Below, in pieces: positions 7,635 to 41,474 of a DNA stretch of 64,000 bases. Below the pieces are notes generated by a model. That model did no database searches, was not told where the DNA came from, and saw only the letters and a list, made by a program, of their open reading frames with translations. This stretch comes from a virus. Each line of letters opens with the position of its first letter. Position 1 is the first letter of the stretch. A program made the position numbers and the translations under genes. The DNA is taken from the IMG/VR virus record IMGVR_UViG_3300032267_001142, positions 122,106-186,105 of that record. One strand, given 5' to 3'.

Positions 7635-7805
7635 ATGAGAAAGTCTCACCTAGTCGAAAAATTGTTATCGCTCTCAATGAGCGAAGTTTTGAGTCCGAGA
7701 AATTCAAAATACGCAAAAGTAGGCGCATGGATAAGTAAACTCTCCAGCGAAGAAAAAGAAAAATTAAAGACTCTTGAGTCGAAAGACTTTAATCATCGAA
7801 TTTAA
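7635..7805 (+). CDS. Small hypothetical protein (56 aa)
   Basis: ATG..TAA ORF filling the gap between two tRNAs. Confidence 0.45.
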   Translation: MRKSHLVEKLLSLSMSEVLSPRNSKYAKVGAWISKLSSEEKEKLKTLESKDFNHRI

Positions 7806-7810
7806 GAAAT

Positions 7811-7884
7811 GTCTCATTAGCATAACAGTAATGCCTCTGCCTTCCAAGCAGAACATGTCGGGGCGGCACCGACATGGGACTCCA
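7811..7884 (+). tRNA. trnG: tRNA-Gly(TCC)
   Basis: Loop CTTCCAA, U73-CCA. Confidence 0.9.
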
Positions 7885-7893
7885 ATTTCAAAT

Positions 7894-7967
7894 GGGTTGC
7901 TAGCTTAAAAGTAAAGCCGTGGATTTTTACCCCACCTAACACGGAGCATTACCGTGGCGACTCTCCA
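7894..7967 (+). tRNA. trnK: tRNA-Lys(TTT)
   Basis: Loop TTTTTAC, CCA. Confidence 0.85.
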
Positions 7968-8015
7968 CTTCAAAGTTTTTCTGGAAACTTTTAATCCAGA
8001 CGTGTAATATACAGT

Positions 8016-8432
8016 ATGACTAAAATCTGTTATATGTGTAAGCTTCCGAAACCAGTCGAAAAGTTCGCCAAGAAGAAAGCGGCTAAAGACGGGTTGCAGA
8101 GTCGCTGCAACGAGTGTATGTCGAAAACGATGATACAAGTCTATAGGGATGACGTTTCAGCATGGAACGATAAAACTAAGTTGCAAAAAGGACGGAAAAG
8201 AGTTTGGGTTGACGAGCTTAAACAATCTGTTGGCTGTATAGTTTGTGGCGAAGAAAATCCTAGCTGTTTAGAGTTTCATCACGTAAGCGCCTCCAATAAA
8301 GAACACGACATATCACAAATGATAGTCAATAAAGCTTCCGACGAAAGGATTCGCGAAGAGATAGACAAGTGTTTGATTCTGTGTGCTAATTGCCACAGAA
8401 AAGTTCATAGAGGATACATCCTGATAGTATAA
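8016..8432 (+). CDS. HNH endonuclease
   Basis: CYMC..CNEC N-terminus; CIVC..LEFHH..LCANCHRKVH. Confidence 0.85.
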   Translation: MTKICYMCKLPKPVEKFAKKKAAKDGLQSRCNECMSKTMIQVYRDDVSAWNDKTKLQKGRKRVWVDELKQSVGCIVCGEENPSCLEFHHVSASNKEHDISQMIVNKASDERIREEIDKCLILCANCHRKVHRGYILIV

Positions 8433-8435
8433 ATC

Positions 8436-8509
8436 GGACTACTAGCATAAAAGTAATGCGTTCGGCCCTTACCCGAATAAATACGGAGCGTTACCGTGGT
8501 TGTCCTCCA
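8436..8509 (+). tRNA. trnK: tRNA-Lys(CTT), C33
   Basis: Loop CCCTTAC, CCA. Confidence 0.8.
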
Positions 8510-8520
8510 TTTAACAAATT

Positions 8521-8605
8521 CGCTCTGTGATGAAATCAGAATACATGCAGGCTTTAGATACCTGTGCCGAAAGGCGTGCAAGTGCAAATCTTGTCGGAGC
8601 GACCA
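8521..8605 (+). tRNA. trnL: tRNA-Leu(TAG)
   Basis: Loop TTTAGAT, variable arm GCCGAAAGGC, CCA. Confidence 0.85.
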
Positions 8606-8613
8606 TTTTATAT

Positions 8614-8687
8614 TGCCCCTTAGCATAGAAGCAATGCCGTGGACTTTGAACCCACATAAGTCGGAGCGTTACCGACAGGGGCGACCA
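8614..8687 (+). tRNA. trnQ: tRNA-Gln(TTG)
   Basis: Loop CTTTGAA, CCA. Confidence 0.9.
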
Positions 8688-8715
8688 ATTAAATAACCTA
8701 CAGAATATCGCCGCG

Positions 8716-8843
8716 CCCTCGAAAGCACGGCTGGTCTAACCAAAAGATGCGGCATCTGGCCGCGATGATAGATAGCGGGGTAAGCTCGATAGACGGCTGA
8801 ACATACGCGTTAAGTAGGCCGGAACGTCCGTGAAATCCGAGAG
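8716..8843 (+). ncRNA. Unclassified structured RNA motif, copy B
   Basis: CTCG/CGAG, CACGG/CCGTG and CTGGTC/GGCCGG stems; shared 18-mer. Confidence 0.5.
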
Positions 8844-8895
8844 TTTAATTTCATAAGGTTCTCTTCGTAAGTATCCTTTCAAAATACTTTCCGTG

Positions 8896-8969
8896 CGGTG
8901 CGTGAGTGTAAGTAACCTTCTCGCCTTGGAAGTGAGATATTGGGAGTGCGAATCTCCCCGCGCCGACCA
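8896..8969 (+). tRNA. trnP: tRNA-Pro(TGG)
   Basis: Loop CTTGGAA (A37), CCA. Confidence 0.85.
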
Positions 8970-9104
8970 GATTCGACGTAATGGACAGCCTACCCACCAA
9001 GGGGCGCGTTTGAATAGTCCTGAAAATTTATTGACGCCGCCACAAATCGGCATACACTTAGGTCATAAGGAAATCATGTGAGTTTCCTCGAACAAAGTAA
9101 AAAT

Positions 9105-9180
9105 GGCCGCTTAGCCCAACAGCAGAGGCGACGAACTCAAAATCCGTAAAGCGAGAGTGCGAATCTCTCAGCGGCTACCA
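9105..9180 (+). tRNA. trnL: tRNA-Leu(CAA), short variable loop
   Basis: Loop CTCAAAA, 5-nt variable loop, CCA. Confidence 0.8.
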
Positions 9181-9183
9181 TTT

Positions 9184-9388
9184 GCCCCTCGGAGGGATAA
9201 GTCCGAGACGAACCAACTAGACGCCGTAGTCACGTTACAATTAAGGACGTGATGGAGGCTATAAAGGTTTGATTACCAACAAAAAGATAGGGAGAATACG
9301 TCAAATATCTCAAGCCTAGTGTTGGAATAGTGCTGCGGAATCACCAGCAAGTTGAATGCATTGTTCGCGACGATGTTACTAGACCGAA
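9184..9388 (+). ncRNA. Putative structured ncRNA (~200 nt)
   Basis: Hairpins CTCGGA/TCCGAG, CACGT/ACGTG, AGGCT/AGCCT, TGCTG/CAGCA; no credible ORF. Confidence 0.4.
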
Positions 9389-9390
9389 AT

Positions 9391-9468
9391 GCCCCATGTA
9401 AGCACCTAGACCTCCCTTGTAACGAGGCATGACGATTGCGATATCGTATGGGGCTCCATTTTTTATGC
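9391..9468 (+). tRNA. trnT: tRNA-Thr(TGT)
   Basis: GCCCCAT/ATGGGGC, loop CTTGTAA, CCA. Confidence 0.75.
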
Positions 9469-9581
9469 AGCGGCGTGGAACATTGACACGCGGTATATCC
9501 TAACGGTGATGCCGGAATAGAAACGATATCGTTTTACGACGATATTCGAGCCAGCCTTAACTGGTCTGCGTAAAGAATTTT

Positions 9582-9656
9582 GGTTTGTTGGGAAACCGTC
9601 AATCCGCCCGCCTGCAAAGCGGGAGATGCCACGTTGGATTCGTGGACAAACCTCCA
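9582..9656 (+). tRNA. trnC: tRNA-Cys(GCA)
   Basis: Loop CTGCAAA, U73-CCA, T-loop TTGGATT. Confidence 0.85.
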
Positions 9657-9694
9657 TTATGAATACATAGCAAAAACAAAACTGCAAAGAAGTA

Positions 9695-9922
9695 GTGTTC
9701 CACTTCAACAAAGGACACCTCGCGAATCCCAACATCCCCATGTGGGTCGTGAAAGCGAAAGGCCAGTCATACTACGTGTCCCACGTAGTCAGCAACGCGC
9801 CTTTCTCCACCAAAGAGACGCCAGAAAATGAGCACACAAAAGGCTCGCTAAAGTTCAAAAACGTCTCTATAGTGCTTGAGAACGGAGTAATCACAATCTC
9901 CCCAATCGAAGGAGGTGATTAA
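9695..9922 (+). CDS. Hypothetical phage protein (possible TAG-readthrough start at 9659)
   Basis: FHFNKGHL..PMWVVKAKG..WS/FSTKETP..HTKGSLK. Confidence 0.65.
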   Translation: MFHFNKGHLANPNIPMWVVKAKGQSYYVSHVVSNAPFSTKETPENEHTKGSLKFKNVSIVLENGVITISPIEGGD

Positions 9923-9975
9923 AATGCGTTAGACTTAGTAAACAATTCCCCGAGGGCCGTAAAAAGCCCTCAACT

Positions 9976-10049
9976 GCTCGGCTAGCTTAATGATAAAGCA
10001 AGCCTCTCTAAAAGGTCGTATCTCGGTTTGAGTCCGAGGTCGAGCACCA
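9976..10049 (+). tRNA. Amber suppressor tRNA (anticodon CTA)
   Basis: GCTCGGC/GTCGAGC, GCCT-CTCTAAA-AGGT, CCA; anticodon 10008-10010. Confidence 0.75.
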
Positions 10050-10053
10050 ATTT

Positions 10054-10141
10054 GGGTTAATAGACGACTAAAGAGGTCGGCCAAGCTGTAACCTTGGTTG
10101 CTTAAATGCACATTTCGGCGCAATACCGGATTAGCCCACCA
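10054..10141 (+). tRNA. trnY: tRNA-Tyr(GTA)
   Basis: Loop CTGTAAC, long variable arm, CCA. Confidence 0.85.
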
Positions 10142-10146
10142 TACAT

Positions 10147-10221
10147 GGCCTATTAGTGTAAAAGTAAGCACGACTGATTCTCAATCAGTAAACCTCGGAG
10201 CGTTACCGAGATAGGCTACCA
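10147..10221 (+). tRNA. trnE: tRNA-Glu(CTC)
   Basis: Loop TTCTCAA, CCA. Confidence 0.9.
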
Positions 10222-10226
10222 ATTTT

Positions 10227-10302
10227 GTTCCTATGGTGAAATCAGAAATCATAGAGGCTTGCGAAGCCCCTGTTCCAGATGCGAGTTCTGGTAGGAACAC
10301 CA
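10227..10302 (+). tRNA. trnR: tRNA-Arg(GCG)
   Basis: Loop TTGCGAA, CCA. Confidence 0.85.
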
Positions 10303-10307
10303 TTTAT

Positions 10308-10399
10308 GGCTAGTTAAGTGGTCGAGTGGCCACCTTCAATTGCTAATTGAAAGGCACCCTTAAACAAGGTGTAGCGGGCGGGACGTTAGCTAGCCGCCA
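10308..10399 (+). tRNA. trnS: tRNA-Ser(GCT)
   Basis: Loop TTGCTAA, long variable arm, G73-CCA. Confidence 0.85.
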
Positions 10400-10406
10400 T
10401 ATAATA

Positions 10407-10595
10407 ATGAACATCCTGAAATGGTTTAGGCGCTGTCAGTGCTGTAAAAAGCGAGGAGCGACCAGACGCCACCAAATGACTCAATACGCGGACGAAGAGC
10501 GCAACTTTGCGACGCTCTGCCCGCCTTGCCAAATCGGAAACGATAAGTATTGGGAGGATATGTGGGCCGAGTATCGTTCAAGTCAAGGTATCTGA
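10407..10595 (+). CDS. Small Cys-rich hypothetical protein
   Basis: ATG at 10407 after the tRNA; CQCC/CPPC. Confidence 0.55.
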   Translation: MNILKWFRRCQCCKKRGATRRHQMTQYADEERNFATLCPPCQIGNDKYWEDMWAEYRSSQGI

Positions 10596-10666
10596 TTTTG
10601 CAGTGCAGAAAACCCGTTAATGGAGTCACGAGATGTTCGTCGGCAATAGAACTCCTTACTGCTTAT

Positions 10667-10742
10667 GTTCGCCTAGCTCAATAGATAGAGCACTACTTTG
10701 CGAAGGTAGAGGTTCCCGATGCAAGTTCGGGGGTGAACTCCA
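10667..10742 (+). tRNA. trnR: tRNA-Arg(GCG)
   Basis: Loop TTGCGAA, U73-CCA. Confidence 0.85.
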
Positions 10743-10748
10743 TTTAAT

Positions 10749-10822
10749 CGGAGGTTGATGAAACAGTATCATATTTGGCCTACACCCAAAATTCGCAAGG
10801 GCAGCACTTGCACTTCCGACCA
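10749..10822 (+). tRNA. trnV: tRNA-Val(TAC), C33
   Basis: Loop CCTACAC, CCA. Confidence 0.8.
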
Positions 10823-10875
10823 ATTAGAGCCTTGACGCCTCTTGAAAAAAGCGTAATCTCAGGGCTGTTCTTTAC

Positions 10876-10950
10876 GCCGCCGTGGCAGAATAGATATGCG
10901 CCAGTCTCCTAAACTGGTTTATGAAAGTGCAACTCTTTCCGGCAGCACCA
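10876..10950 (+). tRNA. trnR: tRNA-Arg(CCT)
   Basis: Loop CTCCTAA, CCA. Confidence 0.85.
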
Positions 10951-11016
10951 GTTCTCTTGAAACAAGCGCCGAGAAATTGCAAAGGCACAAAGTCTTGGAG
11001 TAGGGAGAAAATTTTT

Positions 11017-11093
11017 CGAGTAGTAGTTTATCCTAGAAAAACAGCCCTTCACAAGAGGGCGAAGGTGAGGCATAGGAACTCCCCTCTCGACCA
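11017..11093 (+). pseudogene. Degenerate tRNA (anticodon ACA or CAC, ambiguous)
   Basis: GCCCT-TCACAAG-AGGGC and CCA present, but acceptor and T arm are mismatched. Confidence 0.45.
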
Positions 11094-11097
11094 TTTT

Positions 11098-11172
11098 GCC
11101 GCATAAACATAGTCAGCGATGTGCTAGTTTCGTAAACTAGATAGTAGGGTGCGTCTCCCTAATGTGGCTCCA
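11098..11172 (+). tRNA. trnT: tRNA-Thr(CGT)
   Basis: Loop TTCGTAA, CCA. Confidence 0.85.
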
Positions 11173-11283
11173 TTTTGCAAAAAGAAAACTGATGCACCTA
11201 TGGTCAAAGGGGTGTTGTGAAAATCAGGGTGCGGCTTGCCGTGCGAAACACAGGGGTAAAAGTCCCAACTAGACCATCATTTT

Positions 11284-11358
11284 GTCCCATTAGTGAAACA
11301 GATATAACAATGCGTTTCGACCGCATAATTCCGAGTGCAAATCTTGGGTGGGACACCA
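11284..11358 (+). tRNA. trnR: tRNA-Arg(TCG)
   Basis: Loop TTTCGAC, CCA. Confidence 0.85.
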
Positions 11359-11495
11359 ATCGCTACGACCATTGCAACCAAACCCAAGTCTCACCGAGGG
11401 CGCAGCCAAGCAGGTATGGTGCAAATCTCCCTGTGCTGTGAGAGACTTGGGAAGGGTGCAAGTGCAACTCCCGCCTTGGCGTCCAATTTTTAGAT

Positions 11496-11570
11496 GGTTA
11501 CGTGAGTGTGATAGCCGCACTGAATTTTGTGAAAATTCCAGAATGGGAGCGAAACCCATACGTGACCCCA
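11496..11570 (+). tRNA. trnH: tRNA-His(GTG) with G-1:C73
   Basis: Loop TTGTGAA, 8-bp acceptor. Confidence 0.9.
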
Positions 11571-11635
11571 TCTTTTCTTTCTCAAATTGGAGTTTAATCT
11601 TGCCGCCGCTTGAAAAGTGGGTATGATTATCGAAT

Positions 11636-11710
11636 CAGGTGATGATGTAGCACTCAGCATTCGATTCTGTGAAAATCGCCGGATACGTGGAACTCGTATG
11701 CACCTGACCA
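11636..11710 (+). tRNA. trnH: tRNA-His(GTG), atypical (no G-1, A73)
   Basis: Loop CTGTGAA, T-loop TGGAACT, CCA. Confidence 0.7.
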
Positions 11711-11714
11711 CTTT

Positions 11715-12269
11715 ATGAGCAACTTTAAGTTAGATAGACGGTATTGTTTTAACTGCCAGACTGATACAGAACAAATCGTGAGAGACTCGACGCACGAGCG
11801 GGACGCCTCAAATGATTATTACATCTGTCGGATGTGCCACCATCATTATTCAGGTCGCTCAGGCGAGTATGAAAAACCTTCGGCTTTCGATTTAGAATAC
11901 GAAGAGTCTCTCGCAAAGCAACTATCAACACGACCACAATACGAAAAACTCTTCAGAAGAGAGTTTAGAGCGTTAGACTCAGACTCTCAGCAATTAGCCG
12001 CAGTCACTCTTATCGACACATACAGCCATCGTGTCAACGTCCTCGCGAAGGCTTTTGAGAGTCTAGCCCTCCAGATGATTAAGTCTGGAAGCATTTCGCG
12101 TTTTCGTCGTATCGTAGGACGAGATTTCGTAATTAAACCCCTGCAAAGTTCCCCCTTTTTGAGCGAAAGAGAGCGAGCGTTAAAATCGCAACTGGCCACC
12201 CCGCCAACAGAACGGCAAGTGGAGACGAAAAGCGCATTTTTACGCTCGCTGAACGAAGAGAGTTGTTGA
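11715..12269 (+). CDS. Hypothetical protein with N-terminal zinc ribbon
   Basis: CFNC..CRMC. Confidence 0.55.
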   Translation: MSNFKLDRRYCFNCQTDTEQIVRDSTHERDASNDYYICRMCHHHYSGRSGEYEKPSAFDLEYEESLAKQLSTRPQYEKLFRREFRALDSDSQQLAAVTLIDTYSHRVNVLAKAFESLALQMIKSGSISRFRRIVGRDFVIKPLQSSPFLSERERALKSQLATPPTERQVETKSAFLRSLNEESC

Positions 12270-12302
12270 CTTTGGGTCAAAAAAGCCATATTCTTAATTC
12301 AC

Positions 12303-12373
12303 GTCCTCGGTAATAGATACTTCTGGAGCTTCTAACTCTGAGAAACGCGGCGCGATACCGTGCGGGGACACCA
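12303..12373 (+). tRNA. trnR: tRNA-Arg(TCT), short D arm
   Basis: Loop CTTCTAA, CCA; promoter TTGACT..TATTCT upstream. Confidence 0.75.
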
Positions 12374-12380
12374 CTCTAAA

Positions 12381-12782
12381 ATGAAAATCAGAACCGAAAA
12401 AGTAATCGACTGCAACGATTGGGACAAGCTGGTCAAAGAGACTTACGGCAAGCCTTACACGCTTCAACAACAGAGAGGCTGTCACGACCGAGGCTTTTTT
12501 CGCTTCACAGTTCCAGAGGAAACTGACGAAGATGACTACGCGCACGACGAGATACCGGAAGTCGTCAACGACGAAAAGATGTGCGTCAAATTCGATAAGT
12601 GGTTAGCGAGAGACCCGAAGCAGGAACTCAATGCCGAAGACGGCTCTTGCCGAAAAGAGGACTGGGCCATTGATTTGTGGTGGTCGCGCAATTTCTATCC
12701 AGCGTTTCAGGTTGTTGCTAATGATTTGCACAAACGCGGCAAAATTGAGGCGGGAGACTATACCATAGATATTAACTGGTAA
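12381..12782 (+). CDS. Conserved hypothetical phage protein
   Basis: ATG at 12381; DWDKLVKETYGKPY..WWSRNFYP..DLHKRGKIEAGDYTIDINW. Confidence 0.65.
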   Translation: MKIRTEKVIDCNDWDKLVKETYGKPYTLQQQRGCHDRGFFRFTVPEETDEDDYAHDEIPEVVNDEKMCVKFDKWLARDPKQELNAEDGSCRKEDWAIDLWWSRNFYPAFQVVANDLHKRGKIEAGDYTIDINW

Positions 12783-12973
12783 TGACAGCCGAAGAAGAGT
12801 CCTCAATTAGAAACGCTATATCTCTGCTGCGGCGCTCATTGTGTTGTGACTACAATAACGAGACTTACATTAAAGTTTCGGAGGGTTACTTGGACTACGT
12901 TTTCAGACAGCTCAGAGCGGGACAAAAAGTTCAGCCCCACAAAGAGGCGGGTTTTGCGCTGGCAGGATTTTAG
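12782..12973 (+). CDS. Hypothetical protein
   Basis: Coupled TAATG junction. Confidence 0.45.
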   Translation: MTAEEESSIRNAISLLRRSLCCDYNNETYIKVSEGYLDYVFRQLRAGQKVQPHKEAGFALAGF

Positions 12974-12996
12974 TAATTACGGTGTTGATAGCGCGT

Positions 12997-13491
12997 CTAA
13001 TTACCATGAATAGACACAACACTACGGCACAATTTTAAGAAGTCGTCTAACGCCAAATCATTTTTAGCAACGTTTGCGTTTTTGGTAGTCAAACCCATAT
13101 TAGACAAGTCACAAGCGCCGCCTTTACTTCTTGGTACTTTATGGTCTAGTGAGTAGCTATCCGCTTTTAATAAGTCAATCTTTTCGCCTGTTAGGTAGCA
13201 GGTCGGATTTTCGCCAATAAACGCTAACGCATCCTTGAAGGAGATTGCAGGTTCCGCCTGCCCTTTCAATTTTCCGCCCATACTGAAAAATTTACCATAA
13301 AATCTTTGCAGCTTCCGTCTTAAAGGATGGGCTTTAGAATCGTACTCTTTGGCTTTCCTTAACGCGTAATCTCTAGCAGTTGGGCTAAGATAATATCGAA
13401 CACAAGCAATAGAAACCGATAGATGTTTAGCGATTTTTCTGTAACCCCAAGTTGGGTTTTGTAGTTTACAGTCAAGGACTTTTTGTTTCAT
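12997..13491 (-). CDS. HTH-HNH endonuclease (paralog of 14314-14886)
   Basis: WGYRKIAKHL HTH; SLDHKVPRSKGG..SNMGLTTKNANVAKND. Confidence 0.85.
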   Translation of the reverse strand: MKQKVLDCKLQNPTWGYRKIAKHLSVSIACVRYYLSPTARDYALRKAKEYDSKAHPLRRKLQRFYGKFFSMGGKLKGQAEPAISFKDALAFIGENPTCYLTGEKIDLLKADSYSLDHKVPRSKGGACDLSNMGLTTKNANVAKNDLALDDFLKLCRSVVSIHGN

Positions 13492-13537
13492 GTGATTGTT
13501 TACACGTTGCTAAGAATTTTGGGAAATTTAGATACAT

Positions 13538-13629
13538 GGTTCTGTAATGTAAAGTAGCATCGCACGTCTTATAAACGTGGCGCACTTGATTGGTGCCGGG
13601 TCTCAGTGCAAGTCTGAGCAGAACTACCA
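13538..13629 (+). tRNA. trnI: tRNA-Ile(TAT) with long variable arm
   Basis: CACGT-CTTATAA-ACGTG, ~22-nt variable arm, CCA. Confidence 0.75.
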
Positions 13630-13632
13630 TTT

Positions 13633-13708
13633 CGCTCCTTACTCCAATGCAGAGAGCGTGGTCTCAGAAACCGCGAAAGTGTCGTTGCAAGTACGACAGG
13701 AGCGACCA
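13633..13708 (+). tRNA. trnL: tRNA-Leu(CAG), short variable loop
   Basis: Loop CTCAGAA, CCA. Confidence 0.8.
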
Positions 13709-13718
13709 GAATTTAGAT

Positions 13719-13800
13719 TCCTAGTAAGGAAACGAGTGTAACCGGCGGTCTGTTAAACCGTGAAATAACGAGCTTCGTGCGACTCGAAGACTAGGAGCCA
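13719..13800 (+). tRNA. trnN: tRNA-Asn(GTT), extended variable region
   Basis: Loop CTGTTAA, ~11-nt variable region, G73-CCA. Confidence 0.8.
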
Positions 13801-13947
13801 TTTCAACCCTATTGAGAACCAATAGGGGACGGCACCCTGACAGCAACTTAATCAGGGCGCAGTAAGCGGAAGTTTAAGTTCTAACCGCGTAGCCGTTGAA
13901 AATTTTCTTCTTGCGTTTAGCGAGAAAGACTGTAAGATATAACACAT

Positions 13948-14031
13948 ACACCCTCTCCCAAGAAGGATTGGAACTCGTCTCCAAAACGAGAGTCATCAGA
14001 CTAAGCCGAGCGTTACGGCAAGGGTGTGCCA
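13948..14031 (+). tRNA. trnW: tRNA-Trp(CCA) with variable hairpin
   Basis: Loop CTCCAAA, AGTC-ATCA-GACT arm, G73-CCA. Confidence 0.8.
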
Positions 14032-14035
14032 CTTT

Positions 14036-14109
14036 GGGCTGTTCGACTAAAATTAAGTCACGAGTCTCTTAAACTCAGGAACACGGAGAATTACCGTGAC
14101 GGCTCACCA
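14036..14109 (+). tRNA. trnK: tRNA-Lys(CTT)
   Basis: Loop CTCTTAA, T-loop AGAATTA, CCA. Confidence 0.85.
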
Positions 14110-14184
14110 GCGGGATAGACAAGTAGTTAAGTCAGGGGTTTCATAAGCCTCCATGCATGGGTGCAAATCCCATTTCCGCAACCA
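14109..14184 (+). tRNA. trnM: tRNA-fMet(CAT)-like; shares position 1 with the upstream CCA
   Basis: 1:72 mismatch, GGGGT-TTCATAA-GCCTC, end CCGCAACCA. Confidence 0.8.
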
Positions 14185-14194
14185 TTGTAAATAT

Positions 14195-14269
14195 GGGCCA
14201 TTGATGAAATAGTATCATGCAATTCTGGCAGAATTGATTTTCGGGTGCGAATCCCGAATGTGTCCACCA
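14195..14269 (+). tRNA. trnA: tRNA-Ala(GGC), bulged acceptor
   Basis: G3:U70, loop CTGGCAG, CCA. Confidence 0.8.
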
Positions 14270-14271
14270 TT

Positions 14272-14363
14272 GGAAGCTAGGCGAATATAAGTTGGTCGCG
14301 CTAGTCTTGAAAACTAGTTCACTGTAACAGGTGAGGTCGGGGCAGTACCGACAGCTTCCGCCA
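14272..14363 (+). tRNA. trnS: tRNA-Ser(TGA)
   Basis: Loop CTTGAAA, long arm, G73-CCA. Confidence 0.9.
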
Positions 14364-14886
14364 TTTTGGATACTGAGTATCCACGGTGTATCAAAACTAA
14401 CTTACAGATTTCCTCGAACTCTTCTAATGTGGAGTCTGATTTTGCGCGATTTACCGCTTTTAGCGTCAAGCCGCAATTTGAAAGAGAATTATCTCCTCCT
14501 TTCGCAATAGGTTGAATATGGTCAAGCTCATAGGTTTTCGGCTCTAGTAGATTTATCGGTAGTCCCGTAAGATAGCAGATAGGCTGAGACAAGAGCTTGT
14601 CTTTAAGTTCTTGAGCAGAGAACAGAGAAGCTGCACGATTTCGTCCGCCCGCTAATCCGGCCTTAGTGCATCGCCGCCCCGCTATACATTGGAAATTATC
14701 CTTTTTGCGTTTCAAAATTCCGTTGAAATTCGCCCGATGCTTTCTCGTTCGTGCGAAGCTTCGTTTTTTACCTTCAGGATTCAAATAGTAAGCGACAGTA
14801 CTATAAGCGCAACCTAAAAATTTCGCTATGTTTTTATACCCCCATGTTGGGTTGGAGGTTTTACAATCAAGGATTTTTTGTTTCAT
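14314..14886 (-). CDS. HTH-HNH endonuclease (paralog of 12997-13491)
   Basis: MKQKILDCKTSNPTWGYKNIAK; ELDHIQPIAKGG..SNCGLTLKAVNRAKSD. Confidence 0.85.
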   Translation of the reverse strand: MKQKILDCKTSNPTWGYKNIAKFLGCAYSTVAYYLNPEGKKRSFARTRKHRANFNGILKRKKDNFQCIAGRRCTKAGLAGGRNRAASLFSAQELKDKLLSQPICYLTGLPINLLEPKTYELDHIQPIAKGGDNSLSNCGLTLKAVNRAKSDSTLEEFEEICKLVLIHRGYSVSKMAEAVGTAPTSPVTVN

Positions 14887-14938
14887 ACATGATTTTACAC
14901 GTCGCGTCACATTTTTTCTAGTATTTGTATCGCTGCTT

Positions 14939-15027
14939 AGCAGATTACCCGAATAAGATTCGGCCTCGCCTCGAAAGCGAAGGGCACCCCAAAAGGGTGT
15001 GGGGCGCGCTACCTCAATCTGCTGCCA
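14939..15027 (+). tRNA. trnS: tRNA-Ser(CGA)
   Basis: Loop CTCGAAA, long arm, G73-CCA. Confidence 0.85.
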
Positions 15028-15030
15028 TTT

Positions 15031-15121
15031 GGTAAGTAAATCATCAAAGTGATGACCTAAGCTGGAAACTTAGTGGCACCCTTAAAAAAGGTGTGGGATG
15101 CGAGTTCTCTGCTTACCGCCA
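15031..15121 (+). tRNA. trnS: tRNA-Ser(GGA)
   Basis: Loop CTGGAAA, long arm, G73-CCA. Confidence 0.85.
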
Positions 15122-15196
15122 CGCAGCTCAAAATGAGCTGCTTTTAGCCCTGTGGTGTAATAGAAACATATCTGGTTCTGACCCAGCAGACTCAAC

Positions 15197-15430
15197 GTGC
15201 AAGTCGTTGCGGGGCTTCCAATTATGCCTAGTATCAAAGAAAAGAAAGTCGCGTTCCTACTCGAAAGAGGCGCGGCGGTCGCCTTAGACCAGTTCAATAG
15301 GACTGTGTTGAAGCAAGGTGGCGCGTTTTGTCTCGTTGACGACTATGGCCGCGTCACTTGGTATACGAATAAGACTCTGGAAGAAATGCGAGTCATAAGA
15401 AACGATGCGAGAGTCGAGATTGAATTATGA
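15197..15430 (+). CDS. Hypothetical protein
   Basis: ORF coupled (ATGA) to the next gene. Confidence 0.5.
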   Translation: MQVVAGLPIMPSIKEKKVAFLLERGAAVALDQFNRTVLKQGGAFCLVDDYGRVTWYTNKTLEEMRVIRNDARVEIEL

Positions 15431-15684
15431 AAAGCATGCTCCGCAGTGTCATAAAGGCGAACAAGCAGATAGAAGAGGCTAGAAGCATAATTGCCAAGGT
15501 TCAAGCGAAATGCTCACACCCTGACGCGACGCTCGATAAAGTTTACAAAGCGGACACTGGCAACTGGTGCGAGCAGGACAACTCGTATTGGGCAGAACTG
15601 ACGTGTAACCGATGCGGCAAATTTTGGTACGCAGACAGCGTAAAGAATCCAGAAGACTACCGCAGGGGCACAGTAAAAGTTTGA
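15427..15684 (+). CDS. Hypothetical protein (zinc ribbon)
   Basis: CSH..CNRCGKFW. Confidence 0.6.
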   Translation: MKSMLRSVIKANKQIEEARSIIAKVQAKCSHPDATLDKVYKADTGNWCEQDNSYWAELTCNRCGKFWYADSVKNPEDYRRGTVKV

Positions 15685-15714
15685 CAGCTCAGAAAGTTTC
15701 GATATCATAAAAGC

Positions 15715-16131
15715 ATGAAACCAATCTCCCGTAAGTCCTTCTTTGCTATTTTTGTCGCCCCGCTTTTGGCTCCGTTTTTACCAAAAGCCGTTGCAAAAAT
15801 CGTTAATCCAACTAGCGAGCCAACCGCTTCAAAGGTTTTCCTTACAGCGACAGAGGTAACGACAAACAAGAGAATCGGAAGCGTGAGCTTTTACAGTAAG
15901 TATCTTGCTAACGGACGAACGGAAGTCGCCGATAGAGCGCTGGCTCTCTTAGTTAGGCGGGCCGTCGATAGTGGCGCGTCGCACTATGTCGTCACATGGT
16001 CAGATGCGAACGCTCAGCGGGCATATTTCCATGAAAAATTTAACATACCGCTGAAAAACCTAGACTCTATGTTAGGAAAGTCCGAGCACTGGCTGAGCCG
16101 AGCTGAATTCGAGACACAATATCCTCTTTGA
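15715..16131 (+). CDS. Hypothetical protein with Tat-like N-terminus
   Basis: ISRKSFFAIFVAPLLAP. Confidence 0.5.
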   Translation: MKPISRKSFFAIFVAPLLAPFLPKAVAKIVNPTSEPTASKVFLTATEVTTNKRIGSVSFYSKYLANGRTEVADRALALLVRRAVDSGASHYVVTWSDANAQRAYFHEKFNIPLKNLDSMLGKSEHWLSRAEFETQYPL

Positions 16132-16273
16132 TGCTCTTTATACCTTATTCCAACGATTTTTTACTTCAGTCTCGATGCCGCCTCGGCGGAGGATGTAAAT
16201 ATGGGAAAATAATCGAGTTGGATGCTCGTTTTGAAAACGAGATAGGAATTATAGTAATTCGATAACGAATTAT

Positions 16274-16350
16274 GTCCTGTGAGGGAGCAAGTTGAACCCC
16301 ACAATCTGCAAAATTGTTGTTGCACGGCGCGATACCGTGACAGGACTCCA
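16274..16350 (+). tRNA. trnC: tRNA-Cys(GCA)
   Basis: Loop CTGCAAA, U73-CCA. Confidence 0.85.
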
Positions 16351-16352
16351 AT

Positions 16353-16697
16353 ATGAAACCCGAAGCGCAAAGAAAAGCTATCATTAAGTTCTGTGGCTGG
16401 AAAGACATCTCCGATAGCTGCCGCTATCGTTTAATGACTTTAGCAGTGATTCGAGACGAGCGGATGTTTAACGTCCACGACCCTTTGACGGATTTGAACG
16501 CGATGCGCGAGGCGGAGAGGATGTTGTCAGTAAAGCAAGCGAAACTTTATGTCGAGCTTTTGGGTGAGATAGTTCTGGACAACGGGGGCTGTTACTTCAA
16601 TAAGAACAAATATATGGCATTCGTGGCTCTAAATTCCACGGCTGCGCAGCGCGCCGAAGCTTTTCTAAAAGCTCTTGGACTTTGGACAGAAGATTAA
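16353..16697 (+). CDS. Phage ABA-sandwich-like protein
   Basis: AIIKFCGW..DPLTDLNAMREAE..STAAQRAEAFL; similar to 27474-27839. Confidence 0.55.
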   Translation: MKPEAQRKAIIKFCGWKDISDSCRYRLMTLAVIRDERMFNVHDPLTDLNAMREAERMLSVKQAKLYVELLGEIVLDNGGCYFNKNKYMAFVALNSTAAQRAEAFLKALGLWTED

Positions 16698-16736
16698 AAG
16701 TGTTGACGTTTTAGCAAAAGAGCCTAGAATGTAACC

Positions 16737-17715
16737 ATGCGATTGAGACAGGAAACTCTCTCGAAAGCAACAAAAGGGGGCATGACCTCTTAGATAACGC
16801 GCCGCAAGGCGAAGAAAGGCTGAAAGCCCTACATTTTCAGCCGCCGTTTACGGTCACTTATGCAACCGTAGTTCCTCGGTTTACAATGCCAAACATTGTG
16901 GACTAGACTATCGAGGTTCCGGCGTCCCGAAAGGGGCGTTTCCAGACGTGAAACTCTGGTAAACGGGTTCAAACTTAAATAGTCGAGAACGAAGCGTAGT
17001 TGTTTATGTCGAGCCTAGCAAGCAAGACGCGAACAGCAGCCCAAACGGGAGTGGACTCGTGAGAGTTTATGACCGAGAAAGCCGTCGAAATCGCCGCTGG
17101 CGAAAGATATCATGTTGTGTTGTATTGGGTGGTCGAAAGGTCATCTAGCGACTGGACAGACGCAACATAATAGGGATAAGTATTTGGAACTTACAAGAAA
17201 AAGTTCTGTCCACGTTAGCGCGATAAGCAGATTAAGTCGCTGGCCTTCGGGCAACAGCGAGCGTTAAACCTCTCAAGGGAATAACGTTTGGCGTCAGAGT
17301 AAGATTGGTTGGCCTTTAGCGGGGTTAGCTGAGACGAAAAAACGCTGAGTAGCGCGACGGTTAATGGATATGCTACCATTCAAAAGCATCTGTGAGAAAT
17401 AGCGGTCGAAAGGTCGCTGGATAACAAGATAACACATACGTCTTGTAAAGGTTCTCGAATCGAAGCATAGTCTCAGCTTTGATAATTTGGTCAGCGGGCG
17501 AGCTATTTGAACGCAGTCGTTTGCAAAACTTCTATAGCAAGGTGAGATTCCTTGGCTGACCTCCATCTCATCAGTAGCGTATTACGCTAGTTTGGCTGCG
17601 GCCCATTGGGTCGCGAATTAAAGAGTTCGGGTTGCTCTGAGCTTAGTAGATTGGCAGGACGGAGGTAATAATATCCGCGCTTGTTAGTTGCTGGACGGGG
17701 AGTTAGCCCCTTGAG
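16737..17715 (+). ncRNA. Large ornate structured ncRNA (~980 nt; GOLLD/ROOL-class candidate)
   Basis: Own promoter TTGACG-N16-TAGAAT (16703-16730); no + strand ORF; dense GNRA/UUCG hairpins and long-range helices; abuts a tRNA. Confidence 0.7.
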
Positions 17716-17719
17716 AAAT

Positions 17720-17794
17720 GGGTCATTGGTGAAATAGAATCACGACGCACTCGCAATGCGTAGTCGAGGGTGCGACTCCCTCATGTATCCACCA
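17720..17794 (+). tRNA. trnA: tRNA-Ala(CGC), bulged acceptor
   Basis: G3:U70, loop CTCGCAA, CCA. Confidence 0.85.
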
Positions 17795-17899
17795 CAATTT
17801 TTACGTCGGAAACACAAAGAAAACATAAATGCCACTCAATATCTTAACTCTTTCGGTAGTGATGTCCGCGTTACTAATCTTAACTAGCCGCCGTATTCG

Positions 17900-18400
17900 A
17901 TGAAATTTTTCAAGAAAGTCAAAACCATTACCTCCAAAGAGGGCGAGCTGCACTTCGAGCGCTGGGCGATTTTCGAGTCAAAGTGGCTCTCGTGGTATAT
18001 CCACAGAATACACAAGGCAGACAGGGACCATTTACATTCCTATCCTTGGAATTTTCTGTCACTAATCTTGAAGGGCTGTTATCTCGAAGAGAACGCTTAC
18101 GATACAGCAGATGGAAGTTTCTGCACAGGCTTAAAGATAAAGAGCCCGTTCACAGTCACTTACTGTAACAAATCTAAATTTCATAAAATCAACACCATCA
18201 TCTCTGGTCCGGTTTACACGACGATGTTTGTGTGGGGCGACACCCAGAAGTGGTTTTATCGGGTAGGAAAGAAGAGAATTCCTTTTGAGGAATATCGCGA
18301 AATCAAAGCCGCAGCCAAAGAGGCGGGGCTTTCTATCGAGGAGTATATCTTCAAATATGAGATTGGGCTCTTGACTCCGTCGCAAAAACGAGTAGACTAG
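17900..18400 (+). CDS. Cupin-like hypothetical phage protein
   Basis: YIHRIHKADRDHLHSYPWNFLSLILKGCY. Confidence 0.55.
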   Translation: MKFFKKVKTITSKEGELHFERWAIFESKWLSWYIHRIHKADRDHLHSYPWNFLSLILKGCYLEENAYDTADGSFCTGLKIKSPFTVTYCNKSKFHKINTIISGPVYTTMFVWGDTQKWFYRVGKKRIPFEEYREIKAAAKEAGLSIEEYIFKYEIGLLTPSQKRVD

Positions 18401-18412
18401 TAAAAATCAAAC

Positions 18413-18799
18413 ATGAAATCATTCCTAAAACTTGCAATCATCGCCGTCGCGTCACTATCAATCGCTGGGTGCCAGCCAGAATCAGACGTAGCCGCCTATA
18501 ATGTTTCGCAGGCCGCGCATAATTTTGAAGTCAACAGACGAGTCGTGTTCTACAACGGCATCACAGGAGATTACATACTCACCATCGAGGGTCTTCTATC
18601 TGTGACGCCAGAAGATAAGCGCCTCTCGGTTATCGTAAAGACTGGGCCGAATCAGTATAAGAAGCACTATCTTGGTGTTTCTGATAACGTGACTTGGTTC
18701 TGCGAACAAATCGAATCCGTTCCAGCGTCGCCTTTTCATTATCGTGTCATCTTCCGTCCTACCACGATTATCCCAGATGTCGAAGTTAGGACGCGCTAA
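18413..18799 (+). CDS. Phage lipoprotein
   Basis: Lipobox IAGC; NFEVNRRVVFYNGITG..YKKHYLGVSDNVT. Confidence 0.75.
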   Translation: MKSFLKLAIIAVASLSIAGCQPESDVAAYNVSQAAHNFEVNRRVVFYNGITGDYILTIEGLLSVTPEDKRLSVIVKTGPNQYKKHYLGVSDNVTWFCEQIESVPASPFHYRVIFRPTTIIPDVEVRTR

Positions 18800-18817
18800 G
18801 AGAAGTTTAGTCAAAAT

Positions 18818-18901
18818 GTCGGTGTGAGTTAATGGCGAATAGCACAGCCTCTCCGCTTAAAACGGATACTTTTGCAGGTGCAAGTCCTGTCACCGATACC
18901 A
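18818..18901 (+). tRNA. trnL: tRNA-Leu(TAA), enlarged D arm, short variable loop
   Basis: Loop CTTAAAA, CCA. Confidence 0.7.
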
Positions 18902-18908
18902 AATTACA

Positions 18909-19133
18909 ATGAATGGAACATATCTTGACGCTCTCAATGTCACACTACACTGGTTTGGAGGCTCAATCAATCGAATGGATATTTTCGTGGCCTCTATCGA
19001 AGGACGCGTTATGAGAGATTTGGTTGATTCGGGACATTTGAGAAAAAGATTTTTTGGATGGGAAATCACTAGTAAAGGGCGCGAAGCTCTCGAAGAAGCT
19101 GACATCCATTGTTTCGAGGACACGCGTTCATAA
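18909..19133 (+). CDS. Hypothetical protein (winged-helix-like)
   Basis: LVDSGHL..WEITSKGREAL. Confidence 0.5.
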   Translation: MNGTYLDALNVTLHWFGGSINRMDIFVASIEGRVMRDLVDSGHLRKRFFGWEITSKGREALEEADIHCFEDTRS

Positions 19134-19139
19134 TTTTAT

Positions 19140-19213
19140 CGCTAATTCGTTCAAAAGCAGGACTCGCGTTTCATAAGCGCAGGACGCTGGAGCGTTACCA
19201 GCATTAGCGACCA
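19140..19213 (+). tRNA. tRNA with CAT anticodon (elongator Met or Ile2)
   Basis: Loop TTCATAA, paired 1-72, CCA. Confidence 0.8.
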
Positions 19214-19304
19214 TGTTAGTAAAACCCCGTCTCCCTCGGTTAAGGGGAGGTTGCCAGCGATGGCGATAATATCTGGGGCCGTAAAGTCGGAATCCGAACC
19301 TCCA

Positions 19305-19384
19305 CGCGGTCGGGCATAGGAGAAGTTTCTTCTGGTCTGTCTCATAAGCAGATAAATTACGTGCGATTCGTAACGCCGCAACCA
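19305..19384 (+). tRNA. trnM: tRNA-fMet(CAT)-like with irregular D arm
   Basis: C1:A72, loop CTCATAA, end GCCGCAACCA. Confidence 0.65.
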
Positions 19385-19431
19385 ACAGACTGTGCAAGCC
19401 TATACACAAAACTCAAATCGCGCAGTCATTT

Positions 19432-19505
19432 CGAGACATAGTTCAATAGTAGAATTTTTGATTGACATTCAAAAGACGAAGGAGCGTAACCTTCTGTTTC
19501 GACCA
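19432..19505 (+). tRNA. trnV: tRNA-Val(GAC)
   Basis: Loop TTGACAT, CCA. Confidence 0.85.
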
Positions 19506-26871: not shown

Positions 26872-26917
26872 CGGATAAGTGTTGACCTTTTTCTAAAAGG
26901 GGATACAGTGGTTAGTA

Positions 26918-27207
26918 ACGCAATCGCTAAGCGACTCTACGCGCAATGCCGTAACCAGTGCGGTAAAGTGAGGAAAGTTCTTGGCAGCCGAGAGAACGAC
27001 AGGAGAGCGCCCGCTAGCAATAGCGGCGTTCGTTAATACTGCAAGTTAGCTGCAACCCGAACAGTCCGATGGTAGCTCTCCCAAATGAGGACGGGTCGGG
27101 GCGGTAGGATTCACACCCTACGGGCGCTGTAAAGCGTTCAGTCAAATGTAGAGTTGAAGTCCCGCAAGGGACCAGACCAGAACCGAGGCTATAGCTAGCG
27201 ATTGCGT
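26918..27207 (+). ncRNA. rnpB: RNase P RNA (phage-encoded, compact)
   Basis: P1 ACGCAATCGCTA/TAGCGATTGCGT; CR-I GAGGAAAGTTC (26970); CR-V CAGAACCGAGGCTATA (27178); P2 GACTCTAC/GTAGAGTT; promoter TTGACC..TACAGT. Confidence 0.9.
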
Positions 27208-27882: not shown

Positions 27883-28338
27883 ATGCTAACTGTCTATCCG
27901 CCCGATTACGGGCCGCACCACGATTATCCGAGCGAGCCAATCGGGGAAGGAAACCCGTATTATCAATGTTGCTCGTGTGGAGCCTCAGACCCGCAAATAA
28001 ACGGCACCCTTAGTGGTCATAAGGGCGGTTGCGGCTGGGTTGCCGGTTTCCAAAAAGGATGGCAAGAGCGCTACTACGATTCGATGATTGACTGCGCCGC
28101 TATTCGTGGTCCCGATGGGCGGGTCTGGACCGGCAAGCGGCATTACCACTGTATCAATACAATTATCCAAGCTACCGGCGTAAAACAGGTTGCCGAAGGA
28201 TACGAACAGGGGTTCGTTACCATGTCTGGGCGATTTGTTACGCGCAGAGAGGCAGGACAACTTGTGCAAAAAACTGGACAGGTAAAAGTGACACCATACA
28301 ACCCAAAGCTTGAACTTTTCAGTGAAAATTTATATTAG
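27883..28338 (+). CDS. Conserved two-domain phage protein
   Basis: NPYY.C..C..SDPQING plus AAIR..RHYHC..EQGFVT..GRFVTR.EA..LFSENLY. Confidence 0.6.
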   Translation: MLTVYPPDYGPHHDYPSEPIGEGNPYYQCCSCGASDPQINGTLSGHKGGCGWVAGFQKGWQERYYDSMIDCAAIRGPDGRVWTGKRHYHCINTIIQATGVKQVAEGYEQGFVTMSGRFVTRREAGQLVQKTGQVKVTPYNPKLELFSENLY

Positions 28339-31988: not shown

Positions 31989-32430
31989 TTCTTTGATAGT
32001 AATGGGGTAGCAAGGATTCGACAAATAAGACGAGTCTAAACCCGCAAGCCGCTTATGGTAGTTAGACTGCGTCAAATCTCTACCAAGCATAAACGTCTCA
32101 AACGTAATTGCAAAAGTGAAGACCGCTTGGAGCGCCTTCCGTAATAACCTTACGGTTGCCTTCGGGAGCTTTTCGCCCGTCGTGGCCTAATCACGGCCAC
32201 CCGTATCATTTCCGATTTCTGCTAGGACTTAGATGCGACATTAGCAGGATTTACGAAATAAGTTCGCATATTCTTATTCGTCACATACGATATACGCTGT
32301 GGTCAGTTAGGTTTTGTCATTTTAGACAACTGGCCGAAAGCAAAAAAGAAACTAAGCTTGTAGAAGGTCTGATAAAAATTGTTTGGACAGGGGCTTCGAT
32401 GCCCCTCTACTCCACCATTAGCCTTGATTT

Positions 32431-40217: not shown

Positions 40218-41474
40218 ATGGCTGAAACAATTACGCTAATCTTCGCCGATATTAAAGGCAACAATAATAAAATGTGGAAAGCCACATTGCATGATGACGA
40301 CAGCGTCATCAGCGAGTTTGGCCGAGTTGGTCTAGGAACGCAAAGGAAGGACTACGGGAAAGTCGGTAAGGTGTTCTTCGACAAAAAGGTCCGCGAGAAA
40401 ACCAAAAAGGGATACACGGAAGCCAAGACCGTAGATAATTCAGCATCCTCGACCAGTGCGGCTACGTCAAATAATCTGTTGCTGGATATCGCGAAGTCGC
40501 AAATCAAACTCGGCAGCGCGTCCCTTGAGCGGCTAATCGAACGTTTAGTCTCGTCGAATATCCACCGCATCACGTCTTCTACCCAAATCAATTACAACAC
40601 GTCAACAGGCGTGTTCAGCACACCTTTGGGAGTCGTAACGAAAGAGGGGATTACTGAGGCGCGAGACATCTTAGCGCAGATGGTCCCGCTAGTCTCCGCC
40701 AGAAATCACTCGTCATGCGTTGACCTAGCAAATAAGTATCTGCGCATTGTGCCTCAAAATTTAGGAATGAGGAAGCTTGATGTTTCGTGGCTATTTCCTG
40801 ATATTGCCGCAATTCAAAAGCAGCAAAGCGTTTTGGACTCTCTCGAATCTAGTCTTGACACGCTTAGCTCCAAACCCCTGAAAGATTCAGCATCGACAAA
40901 TAACGCGACCTACGAGAAGGTATTTGGCGCTTCTTTGAATATCTGCGGCGACGATAAGGTCCGCGCTCGTTTAGTAAAATGGTTTGAGAGTACAAAGAAG
41001 CCGATGCACGGATACGGAAGTGCCAAAGTCGCAGAGATTTACGAAGTGGACGTAGTGGACTATAACGCGGAATTTATTTCGGACCCCAATACTGTCGAGG
41101 TTTTTCATGGAACGTCTCAGGCTAATGTTCTTAGCGTGCTAAAGAGCGGCCTTTTGATTTCCCCTCCCAGCACCGCTGTTATTGCAGGGAAGTTATTTGG
41201 TAACGGGCTTTATGGTTCACAGACCTCGACGAAAAGCTTAGGATACGCTTTGGGTCGATGGGGCGCTAGCGTGGGTGATGCAGGATGGCTTTTCGTTTGT
41301 AATTTTGCGATGGGAAAGGCTTACTATCCAACGACTTACGGCATTTCTTCGGTGCCTGCGGGATTCGATTCTTGTTGGGCGCTGCCCGAGAAGACGAGGC
41401 TTCATAATGATGAGTTGATTGTCTATAGCAAGAATAGGATTCGTATGAATTACCTGCTGGAAGTGAAAGCTTAA
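40218..41474 (+). CDS. WGR-domain poly/mono(ADP-ribose) polymerase (PARP-like)
   Basis: WGR-like EFGRVG; catalytic FHGT..GKLFGNGLYG..KSLGY..DELIVY. Confidence 0.85.
   Translation: MAETITLIFADIKGNNNKMWKATLHDDDSVISEFGRVGLGTQRKDYGKVGKVFFDKKVREKTKKGYTEAKTVDNSASSTSAATSNNLLLDIAKSQIKLGSASLERLIERLVSSNIHRITSSTQINYNTSTGVFSTPLGVVTKEGITEARDILAQMVPLVSARNHSSCVDLANKYLRIVPQNLGMRKLDVSWLFPDIAAIQKQQSVLDSLESSLDTLSSKPLKDSASTNNATYEKVFGASLNICGDDKVRARLVKWFESTKKPMHGYGSAKVAEIYEVDVVDYNAEFISDPNTVEVFHGTSQANVLSVLKSGLLISPPSTAVIAGKLFGNGLYGSQTSTKSLGYALGRWGASVGDAGWLFVCNFAMGKAYYPTTYGISSVPAGFDSCWALPEKTRLHNDELIVYSKNRIRMNYLLEVKA

Follow-up and report, generated by a model that had tools for sequence, protein, structure and literature searches.

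The locus and its genomic setting

The DNA considered here, referred to as the window, makes up the final 64 kb of an IMG/VR phage genome that is complete at 186,105 bp and carries direct terminal repeats. An ORF-free gap of 378 nt, in which the upstream reading frame ends at 26871 and the next one starts at 27250, surrounds an RNA gene that spans positions 26918-27207 on the plus strand. The gene runs for 290 nt from the 5' end to the 3' end of its closing helix, P1, and is followed by a U-rich tract. This stretch gives a predicted fold of -114.8 kcal/mol, with a z-score of -4.66 relative to dinucleotide shuffles. RNase P RNA is the ribozyme that trims new tRNAs, and the features recognized in the RNA, which we refer to as the candidate, and just ahead of it are those of an RNA of this family:

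26882-26909, plus strand: sigma-70-like promoter TTGACC-16-TACAGT, by consensus match only, ending 8 nt upstream of P1
26918-26929, plus strand: 5' strand of P1, paired with 27196-27207 (12 bp, all Watson-Crick)
26932-26940, plus strand: 5' strand of P2, CGACUCUAC, with 9 pairs to 27148-27156, crossing P4 as a pseudoknot
26942-26970, plus strand: P3 hairpin of 10 pairs with an AA/AA internal loop
26970-26984, plus strand: CR-I, GAGGAAAGU (26970-26978, bulged U at 26978), and the 5' strand of P4, which pairs with 27183-27190
26985-26988, plus strand: 5' strand of P5, CAGC, paired with GCUG at 27049-27052 (4/4)
26990-26994, plus strand: 5' strand of P6, GAGAG, in a pseudoknot with CUCUC at 27076-27080 inside the loop of P17
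26995-27048, plus strand: remnant of the specificity domain (S-domain), 54 nt, with a short P7-like stem and one 11-pair hairpin capped by a GCAA tetraloop (27005-27031), from the fold only and with no covariation
27049-27102, plus strand: 3' strand of P5, J5/15 (G)CAA, P15 CCC/GGG, L15 GAACA...GGGUC, P16 GUCC/GGAC, P17 UGG/CCA and a conserved AUGA, matched by the covariance model R2 (see below)
27104-27121, plus strand: extra 5-pair hairpin between P15 and P18, from folding only, absent from the six phage mini RNAs described below
27122-27139, plus strand: P18-like hairpin of 7 pairs with a GUAA tetraloop, from the fold
27140-27147, plus strand: J18/2, AGUCAAAU (E. coli AGAUGAAU), with an AAAUG that is common to all six mini RNAs
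27159-27172, plus strand: P19-like hairpin GUCCC-GCAA-GGGAC between the 3' strand of P2 and CR-V, from folding only; a hairpin lies at the same place in the bacterial RNA L277
27173-27195, plus strand: J2/4 and CR-V (CAGACCAGAA), the 3' strand of P4, CCGAGGCU, and a linker AUAGC, from motif, pairing and the covariance model R1 (see below)

The transcription start predicted from the promoter-like site, at around 26916-26918, corresponds to the first base of P1. A first-pass annotation, made from the sequence alone, had credited the gene with its own promoter, and this consensus match agrees with it.

Also within the window are at least 24 tRNA genes (4730-19505), one GOLLD RNA and one tmRNA gene. 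The RNA gene is found in the same arm of the genome as the tRNA array, 7.4 kb past the last detected tRNA and 4.8 kb before the tmRNA gene. The GOLLD RNA is located inside the array (17110-17479) and scores 150.6 bits against a gathering score of 150. The tmRNA gene (32004-32417, 95.3 bits) harbors a canonical T-loop in its tRNA-like part (GGGGC-UUCGAUG-CCCC), unlike the tRNAs of the phage. A suppressor tRNA with a CUA anticodon is encoded at 9976-10049, and the string GGAAAGTCCGAGC occurs at 16074-16086, in a region separate from the RNA gene.

No RnpA is encoded by the phage. The 200-aa ORF upstream of the RNA is an orphan, and a downstream neighbor of 151 aa (27883-28338) contains a T4_Y16D domain (PF26092); shorter homologues of this protein are scattered over other large-phage contigs without synteny to the RNA, and the RNA is absent from the contigs that carry them. 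Another ORF (40218-41474) encodes a WGR domain together with the regulatory and catalytic domains of PARP, the catalytic one matched in Pfam at E 1.5e-20. The replicase is of the DNA polymerase III alpha type (L055:3884-6919, minus strand, genome positions 80783-83818), and shows weak Hint/intein-like Pfam matches at residues 495-577, both of which are under the Pfam cut-offs. Inteins are also found in several terminase homologues of the clade, in forms of about 1040-1065 aa. This terminase clade, of which the phage is a member, is large, and many relatives were found. Two of these relatives are complete (G001 and G003, with 48% and 35% terminase identity), and both are without the RNA, its flanking genes and the tRNA array, one having zero tRNA genes and the other a single canonical tRNA gene.

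The catalytic domain

All of the helices of a class-A catalytic domain, P1-P6 and P15-P18, are present in the candidate and are kept through compensatory sequence. Helix P4, formed between AG[U]UCUUGG and its 3' strand, makes eight of eight pairs, two of which are G-U, around the universal bulged U. Pairing is likewise complete in P15 (3/3) and P16 (4/4), and is 3/4 in P17, and the sequences of P4, P5 and P15-P17 are all unlike those of the mini-RNA family. The conserved single-stranded core is also in place, comprising CR-I with its bulged U, the GCAA of J5/15, the GGGU of L15, the AAAU of J18/2 and the CAGAA of J2/4, and the CR-V side can be read in the sequence as CAGAAC...GGCUAUA. The P6 pseudoknot starts one base after P5, the position that it occupies in the six mini RNAs.

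Much of this had been anticipated in the first-pass annotation. The 12-bp P1, P2, the compensated P4 and the CR-I and CR-V motifs that it listed are all seen directly at 26918-27207, and its description of a complete catalytic core is borne out by P1, P2, P3, CR-I, P4, P5, P6, P15-P17, P18, J18/2 and CR-V. Its P18- and P19-like hairpins are those that the fold caps with GUAA and GCAA, respectively. Two other assignments were dropped in favor of the register given by the mini-RNA family. GGAGAGC/GCUCUCC had been considered as P5/P7, and the family register instead gives P6 as GAGAG/CUCUC; similarly, GGUAGG at 27103-27108 had been considered as L15, which the family alignment places at GGGUC, 27093-27097.

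A local hairpin, UCUUGG-CAG-CCGAGA (26979-26993), competes with P4, P5 and P6. It is able to form because positions 26988-26994 (CCGAGAG) nearly repeat the 3' strand of P4 (CCGAGGC, 27183-27189), and it may represent an alternative conformer or a folding trap.

A specificity domain reduced to a stub

In the family register only 54 nt remain between P6 and the 3' strand of P5, which upholds the claim of an S-domain with no room for P12-P14 and no CR-II/III. Neither CR-II (AGUGCNACAGAAA) nor CR-III (GGUAAACCCC), taken as the consensus of 100 bacterial genes, occurs in these 54 nt, and none of P8-P14 is found there. By folding alone, the P7-like stem of the stub is broken and surrounds the single GCAA hairpin. 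Because no close homologue of the candidate was found, it is from folding alone that the stub size and two of the hairpins, the one at 27104-27121 and the P19-like one, are read. The smallest bacterial RNase P RNA in our sample (L277, 300 nt) retains the CR-II and P13 motifs.

Two sequences that might have extended the S-domain were set aside. The string GAACAGUCCGAUGG, which had been taken in the first-pass annotation as an S-domain landmark and which, matching positions 214-225 of the E. coli RNA in 12 of 13, could be read as P14-like or as a remnant, belongs by family alignment to the 5' side of L15 and P16, and hence to the catalytic domain. A reading of AGUGCGGUAAAG, in the 3' strand of P3, as CR-II/III moved from its usual site was dropped, since the position is wrong and the match is probably due to chance.

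Comparison with catalogued RNase P RNAs

The candidate has no match to the Rfam RNase P families, whether at the gathering thresholds, at E<=10 on 901 nt, or when 5' and 3' pieces are searched separately with truncated matches allowed. The class-A model RF00010, whose gathering threshold of 100 bits the candidate fails to reach, returned just one chance hit to a terminator hairpin from the whole phage genome and five relatives, and nothing at the locus. A scan with all families at E<=10 likewise gave no match to the type T model, RF02357. Class B, which was judged by the presence of P5.1, P10.1, P15.1 and P19 and the absence of P6, P16 and P17, does not accommodate the candidate either: there is no Rfam match to RF00011, and the RNA has the P6, P16 and P17 that class B lacks, sharing with it only the P19-like hairpin. 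The Rfam models for RNase P are not known to pair P4, which crosses P2. If they do not, a likely contributor to the failure of RF00010 is P4, in which the changes on both strands (UCUUGG/CCGAGG for CCGGG/CCCGG) would be counted as mismatches.

Sequence profiles gave the same picture. From bacterial genomes, 100 rnpB genes were fetched with a CR-I pattern, 85 of class A and 15 of class B, and the nhmmer profiles built from them found nothing at the locus. With neither an Rfam nor an nhmmer match, the likeness to bacterial rnpB sequence is thus limited to short motifs. A blastn search of GenBank phages gave no relative of the RNA, and scanning IMG/VR and JGI metagenomes with exact and gapped motifs turned up nothing but chance matches in coding DNA, so that no close homologue was found by blastn, by motif scans, among terminase relatives or on the contigs with neighbor-protein homologues.

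The architecture itself can be searched for. A descriptor was composed of AGGAAAGU, at least five contiguous P4 pairs after the bulged U with the 3' strand lying between CA[GA]AA and CU, a P1 of 7 or more pairs and a P2 of 5 or more pairs in the crossing arrangement. Of 120 true bacterial rnpB loci it finds 84, none with a second site, and it also finds E. coli rnpB; in 1.38 Mb of other DNA it gives one false positive, which is AT-rich. The sole match in the 186-kb genome is the locus at 26918-27207, with 12 pairs in P1 and 10 in P2 as the descriptor counts them (9 in the structure model). Among the 84 bacterial genes, the length from P1 to P1 is about 402 nt at the median and never below 300, against 290 in the candidate; from CR-I to CR-V the median distance is 306 and the shortest 227, against 207.

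A group of miniature RNase P RNAs in phages

Pattern scans of IMG/VR uncovered six phage mini RNase P RNAs of 192-249 nt, on contigs of 39-340 kb. All six are found beside tRNA genes, which number from 4 to 26 per locus, and one locus, L307, also has a tmRNA gene:

L300:1379-1570, plus strand: mini RNase P RNA
L301:6197-6398, minus strand: mini RNase P RNA
L302:6795-7043, minus strand: mini RNase P RNA
L304:788-1011, minus strand: mini RNase P RNA
L307:12077-12270, minus strand: mini RNase P RNA
L308:679-885, minus strand: mini RNase P RNA

RF00010 scores these RNAs at 61-72 bits (E 6e-20 to 4e-16), skipping the S-domain part of the model, and because this is below the 100-bit gathering score, routine annotation would pass over all six. 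In their alignment P4, P5, the P7-like stub, P15, P16 and P17 covary, as does the P6 pseudoknot (UCGCUUA/UGAGCGA, CUGCUUA/UGAGCAG, UCACUU/GAGUGA and GUGCUC/GAGCAU). When the candidate and the variant L303 are added to give eight rows, 91% of the cells are paired, against 31-44% with the partners slid, and both sides have changed in 23 of 32 pairs. The variant (L303:10627-10786, plus strand), which scores 32.5 bits on the R1 model described next, appears to have retained a hairpin like P8 and a string (GCAACAGAAAGUAAACCGCC) that resembles CR-II and CR-III fused, and may represent an intermediate stage of S-domain loss.

Two covariance models were built from the six mini RNAs, with the candidate left out of both, and their E-values, as those of home-made models, are rough. 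The first, R1, spans CR-I to CR-V in 154 positions and annotates P4 in place of P2. On the whole 64-kb window with the filters off, its top match is at 26969-27191, over the full length of the model, at 20.7 bits (E about 0.008), and the next match is at 9.4 bits. Because CR-I, CR-V and P4, all of which R1 contains, were also among the motifs on which the first-pass annotation had based its choice of the locus, a second model that holds none of these was made. R2 comprises 55 positions from the 3' strand of P5, J5/15, P15, P16, P17 and L15, and its top match in the window is at 27049-27102 with 33.5 bits (E 3.5e-7), the next being at 9.9 bits. The P6 pseudoknot of the candidate is in neither model. 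On 12 bacterial rnpB loci, R2 gives at most 14.5 bits, with the correct place in the one found; the affinity of the candidate is therefore with the phage group in particular.

The first-pass annotation had proposed a phage-encoded RNase P RNA with a strongly reduced S-domain, and two models from independent phage mini RNAs now match it. The RF00010 and RF00011 searches through which it was to be confirmed gave no match, and it is through the phage-derived covariance models that the RNase P identity is supported. Within the group, the candidate is the most divergent mini RNase P RNA of those compared, having no RF00010 match at E<=10 where the six score 61-72 bits, and it is the only one located beside re-wired tRNAs.

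The tRNA array and the elbow

The phage carries around 50 odd tRNA genes. Among the 24 that ARAGORN detects in the window (4730-19505), 19 have T-loops of the form NGCR(A/U), such as UGCAAGU, AGCGUUA and CGCGAUA, and only one has TTCRA; the elbow-altered tRNAs reported in the first-pass annotation are thus real. The T-loops have G55 in place of U55, and some have A54...U58 or C54, while the D-loops are mostly AG rather than GG. Scores on the Rfam tRNA model are depressed in the array, at 36-55 bits against 50-79 bits in other phages. CCA is encoded by 23 of the 24 genes, and a U at position -1 ends most of the listed leaders.

In solved RNase P-tRNA complexes, the outer G19-C56 pair of the elbow is the one on which the S-domain of the bacterial RNA stacks. 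This raises the question of whether an RNase P RNA that has lost its S-domain and tRNAs with unusual elbows belong together, and the first-pass annotation had indeed matched the one to the other. Under such a reading, the phage RNase P would be re-specified for, or independent of, elbows with G55 and A18 on which the host enzyme performs poorly, forming a self-contained processing system. Both oddities do occur in one genome, with its 19 of 24 NGCR(A/U) T-loops. The RNA in question is also the one that diverges furthest from the other mini RNAs and escapes RF00010, its stub is 54 nt long against approximately 33 nt in the family, and the terminase relatives that are without the tRNA array are also without the RNA. 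However, the loss of the S-domain is common to the six mini RNAs of unrelated phages, and 69 of the 72 tRNAs at their loci have TTCRA T-loops. With six mini RNAs beside canonical tRNAs, the loss of the S-domain is therefore characteristic of this class of phage RNA as a whole, rather than a reaction to G55 elbows. The outer G19-C56 pair, moreover, appears to be kept, since C56 is retained in most of the array T-loops and the D-loops are shown mostly with AG. The co-occurrence of a compact RNA with G55 tRNAs across phages, which had been put forward as a check, amounts to a single case against six canonical loci. A link between S-domain loss and the re-wired elbows is not supported, and we regard a re-specified or elbow-independent enzyme as unlikely.

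A broader form of the same idea would be an orthogonal tRNA supply line, in which some 50 tRNAs with re-wired elbows (G55, often A18 and sometimes A54-U58) are matured by an elbow-blind phage ribozyme, both having co-evolved away from the host. Host factors that read the elbow, among them the RNase P S-domain, TruB, TrmA and the tRNA-targeting nucleases of defence systems, would then act poorly on such tRNAs. We consider this scheme unlikely.

Interpretation and proposed function

We consider it likely that 26918-27207 is the gene for a miniature RNase P RNA derived from class A, a divergent member of an uncatalogued phage group in which the catalytic domain has been kept and the S-domain almost lost. 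Its homology to RNase P RNA, taken separately, is highly probable. The most likely function, and on the features of the sequence a reasonably probable one, is the 5' maturation of tRNAs together with host RnpA.

In the proposed mechanism, the RNA would be transcribed from its own sigma-70-type promoter. It is predicted to bind the acceptor stem, 5' leader and genome-encoded 3'-CCA of the approximately 50 phage pre-tRNAs, and probably the tmRNA precursor too, after which the 5' leader would be removed. In the E. coli RNA, G292 and G293 pair with CCA and A248 meets base -1. By analogy, the equivalents in the candidate would be G27094 and G27095 of L15 and the adenines of J5/15. As the phage has no RnpA, that of the host would be the most likely partner. 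Without T-loop modules to read the elbow, substrates would be recognized through the acceptor end only. The likely benefit would be extra, or host-independent, capacity for tRNA 5' maturation in infection.

An alternative is that the RNA is a non-catalytic look-alike, either a decoy that sequesters host RnpA or pre-tRNA leaders in order to stop host tRNA maturation, or a decaying relic. The unusual sequence of P4 with its two G-U pairs and the competing local hairpin are in keeping with this, as are the lack of a close homologue that might reveal purifying selection and the lack of a phage RnpA. Against it, the nucleotides of the single-stranded core are kept, as are the helices of the C-domain, including P6, through compensatory change, which is unexpected for a relic, and the gene has a promoter-like site of its own; we would put a decoy or relic at perhaps a one-in-ten chance. 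That the candidate is some unrelated structured phage RNA with an accidental likeness to RNase P is very improbable, for although Rfam and nhmmer find no match and the identity to rnpB is confined to short motifs, R1 and R2 both match it where expected, with register and order correct, R2 without any of the motifs that picked the locus, over a background that stays below 10 bits in about 270 kb of searched strands.

Significance

RNase P RNA is regarded as a ribozyme universal to cells, and a search of the full-text literature found no paper on a virus- or phage-encoded form. Judged from their sequences, the candidate and its six relatives suggest the presence, in large phages that have tRNA arrays, of natural ribozymes with little left beyond the catalytic domain. 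Standard annotation misses these phage mini RNAs, which fall under the Rfam threshold, and the candidate is invisible to Rfam. The 5' maturation of tRNA would join the list of translation functions that phages bring with them. As ready-made minimal RNase P RNAs, the phage forms lend themselves to the study of catalysis without elbow recognition, and in the genome of the candidate, the importance of a re-wired tRNA elbow to RNase P can be tested directly.

Relationship to known RNase P systems

The E. coli M1 RNA, encoded by rnpB (class A, RF00010, 377 nt), has the same order of catalytic-domain elements as the candidate, running through P1-P6, P15-P17, P18, J18/2 and CR-V. The GGU of L15, a P18 with a GNRA loop and the bulged U in CR-I are common to class A and the candidate, and the CR-I sequence and the GCAA of J5/15 are identical in E. 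coli and the candidate. Unlike class A, the candidate is 290 nt long, is without P8-P14 and CR-II/III, has a P4 that is changed on both strands, and is encoded by a phage; it also bears one additional hairpin following P15 and another hairpin ahead of CR-V.

The six phage mini RNAs share with the candidate the same helices in the same register, and in all of them the S-domain is cut to a short stub. A number of derived motifs are also common to the seven RNAs, namely GCAAC-N-C-RAACAG, AUGA before the 3' strand of P16, GGGU-N before the 3' strand of P15, AAAUG before the 3' strand of P2, and a P6 that starts 1-3 nt after P5. The candidate differs in being longer (290 against 192-249 nt), in having a larger stub and a more diverged P4, and in its extra and P19-like hairpins, which are missing in the six. 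The six are found inside tRNA arrays, whereas the candidate lies 7.4 kb beyond the last detected tRNA, and its neighboring tRNAs have G55 T-loops where the neighbors of the six have TTCRA. A relative of the terminase of the candidate's phage is not detectable in five of the mini-RNA phage records, one of which is complete.

RNase P RNAs without an S-domain are not confined to phages. The type T RNase P RNA of the Thermoproteaceae (RF02357) is a natural example (PMC3579882), and the E. coli C-domain alone is reported to be catalytic at lower efficiency (PMC5839562). Both the type T RNA and the engineered C-domain-only E. coli RNA work without the S-domain, as the candidate would, and they demonstrate that an RNase P RNA consisting of the C-domain alone may be a natural enzyme with activity. 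In contrast to type T, which is archaeal and is accompanied by archaeal proteins, the candidate, with no Rfam match, appears to descend from the bacterial class-A fold.
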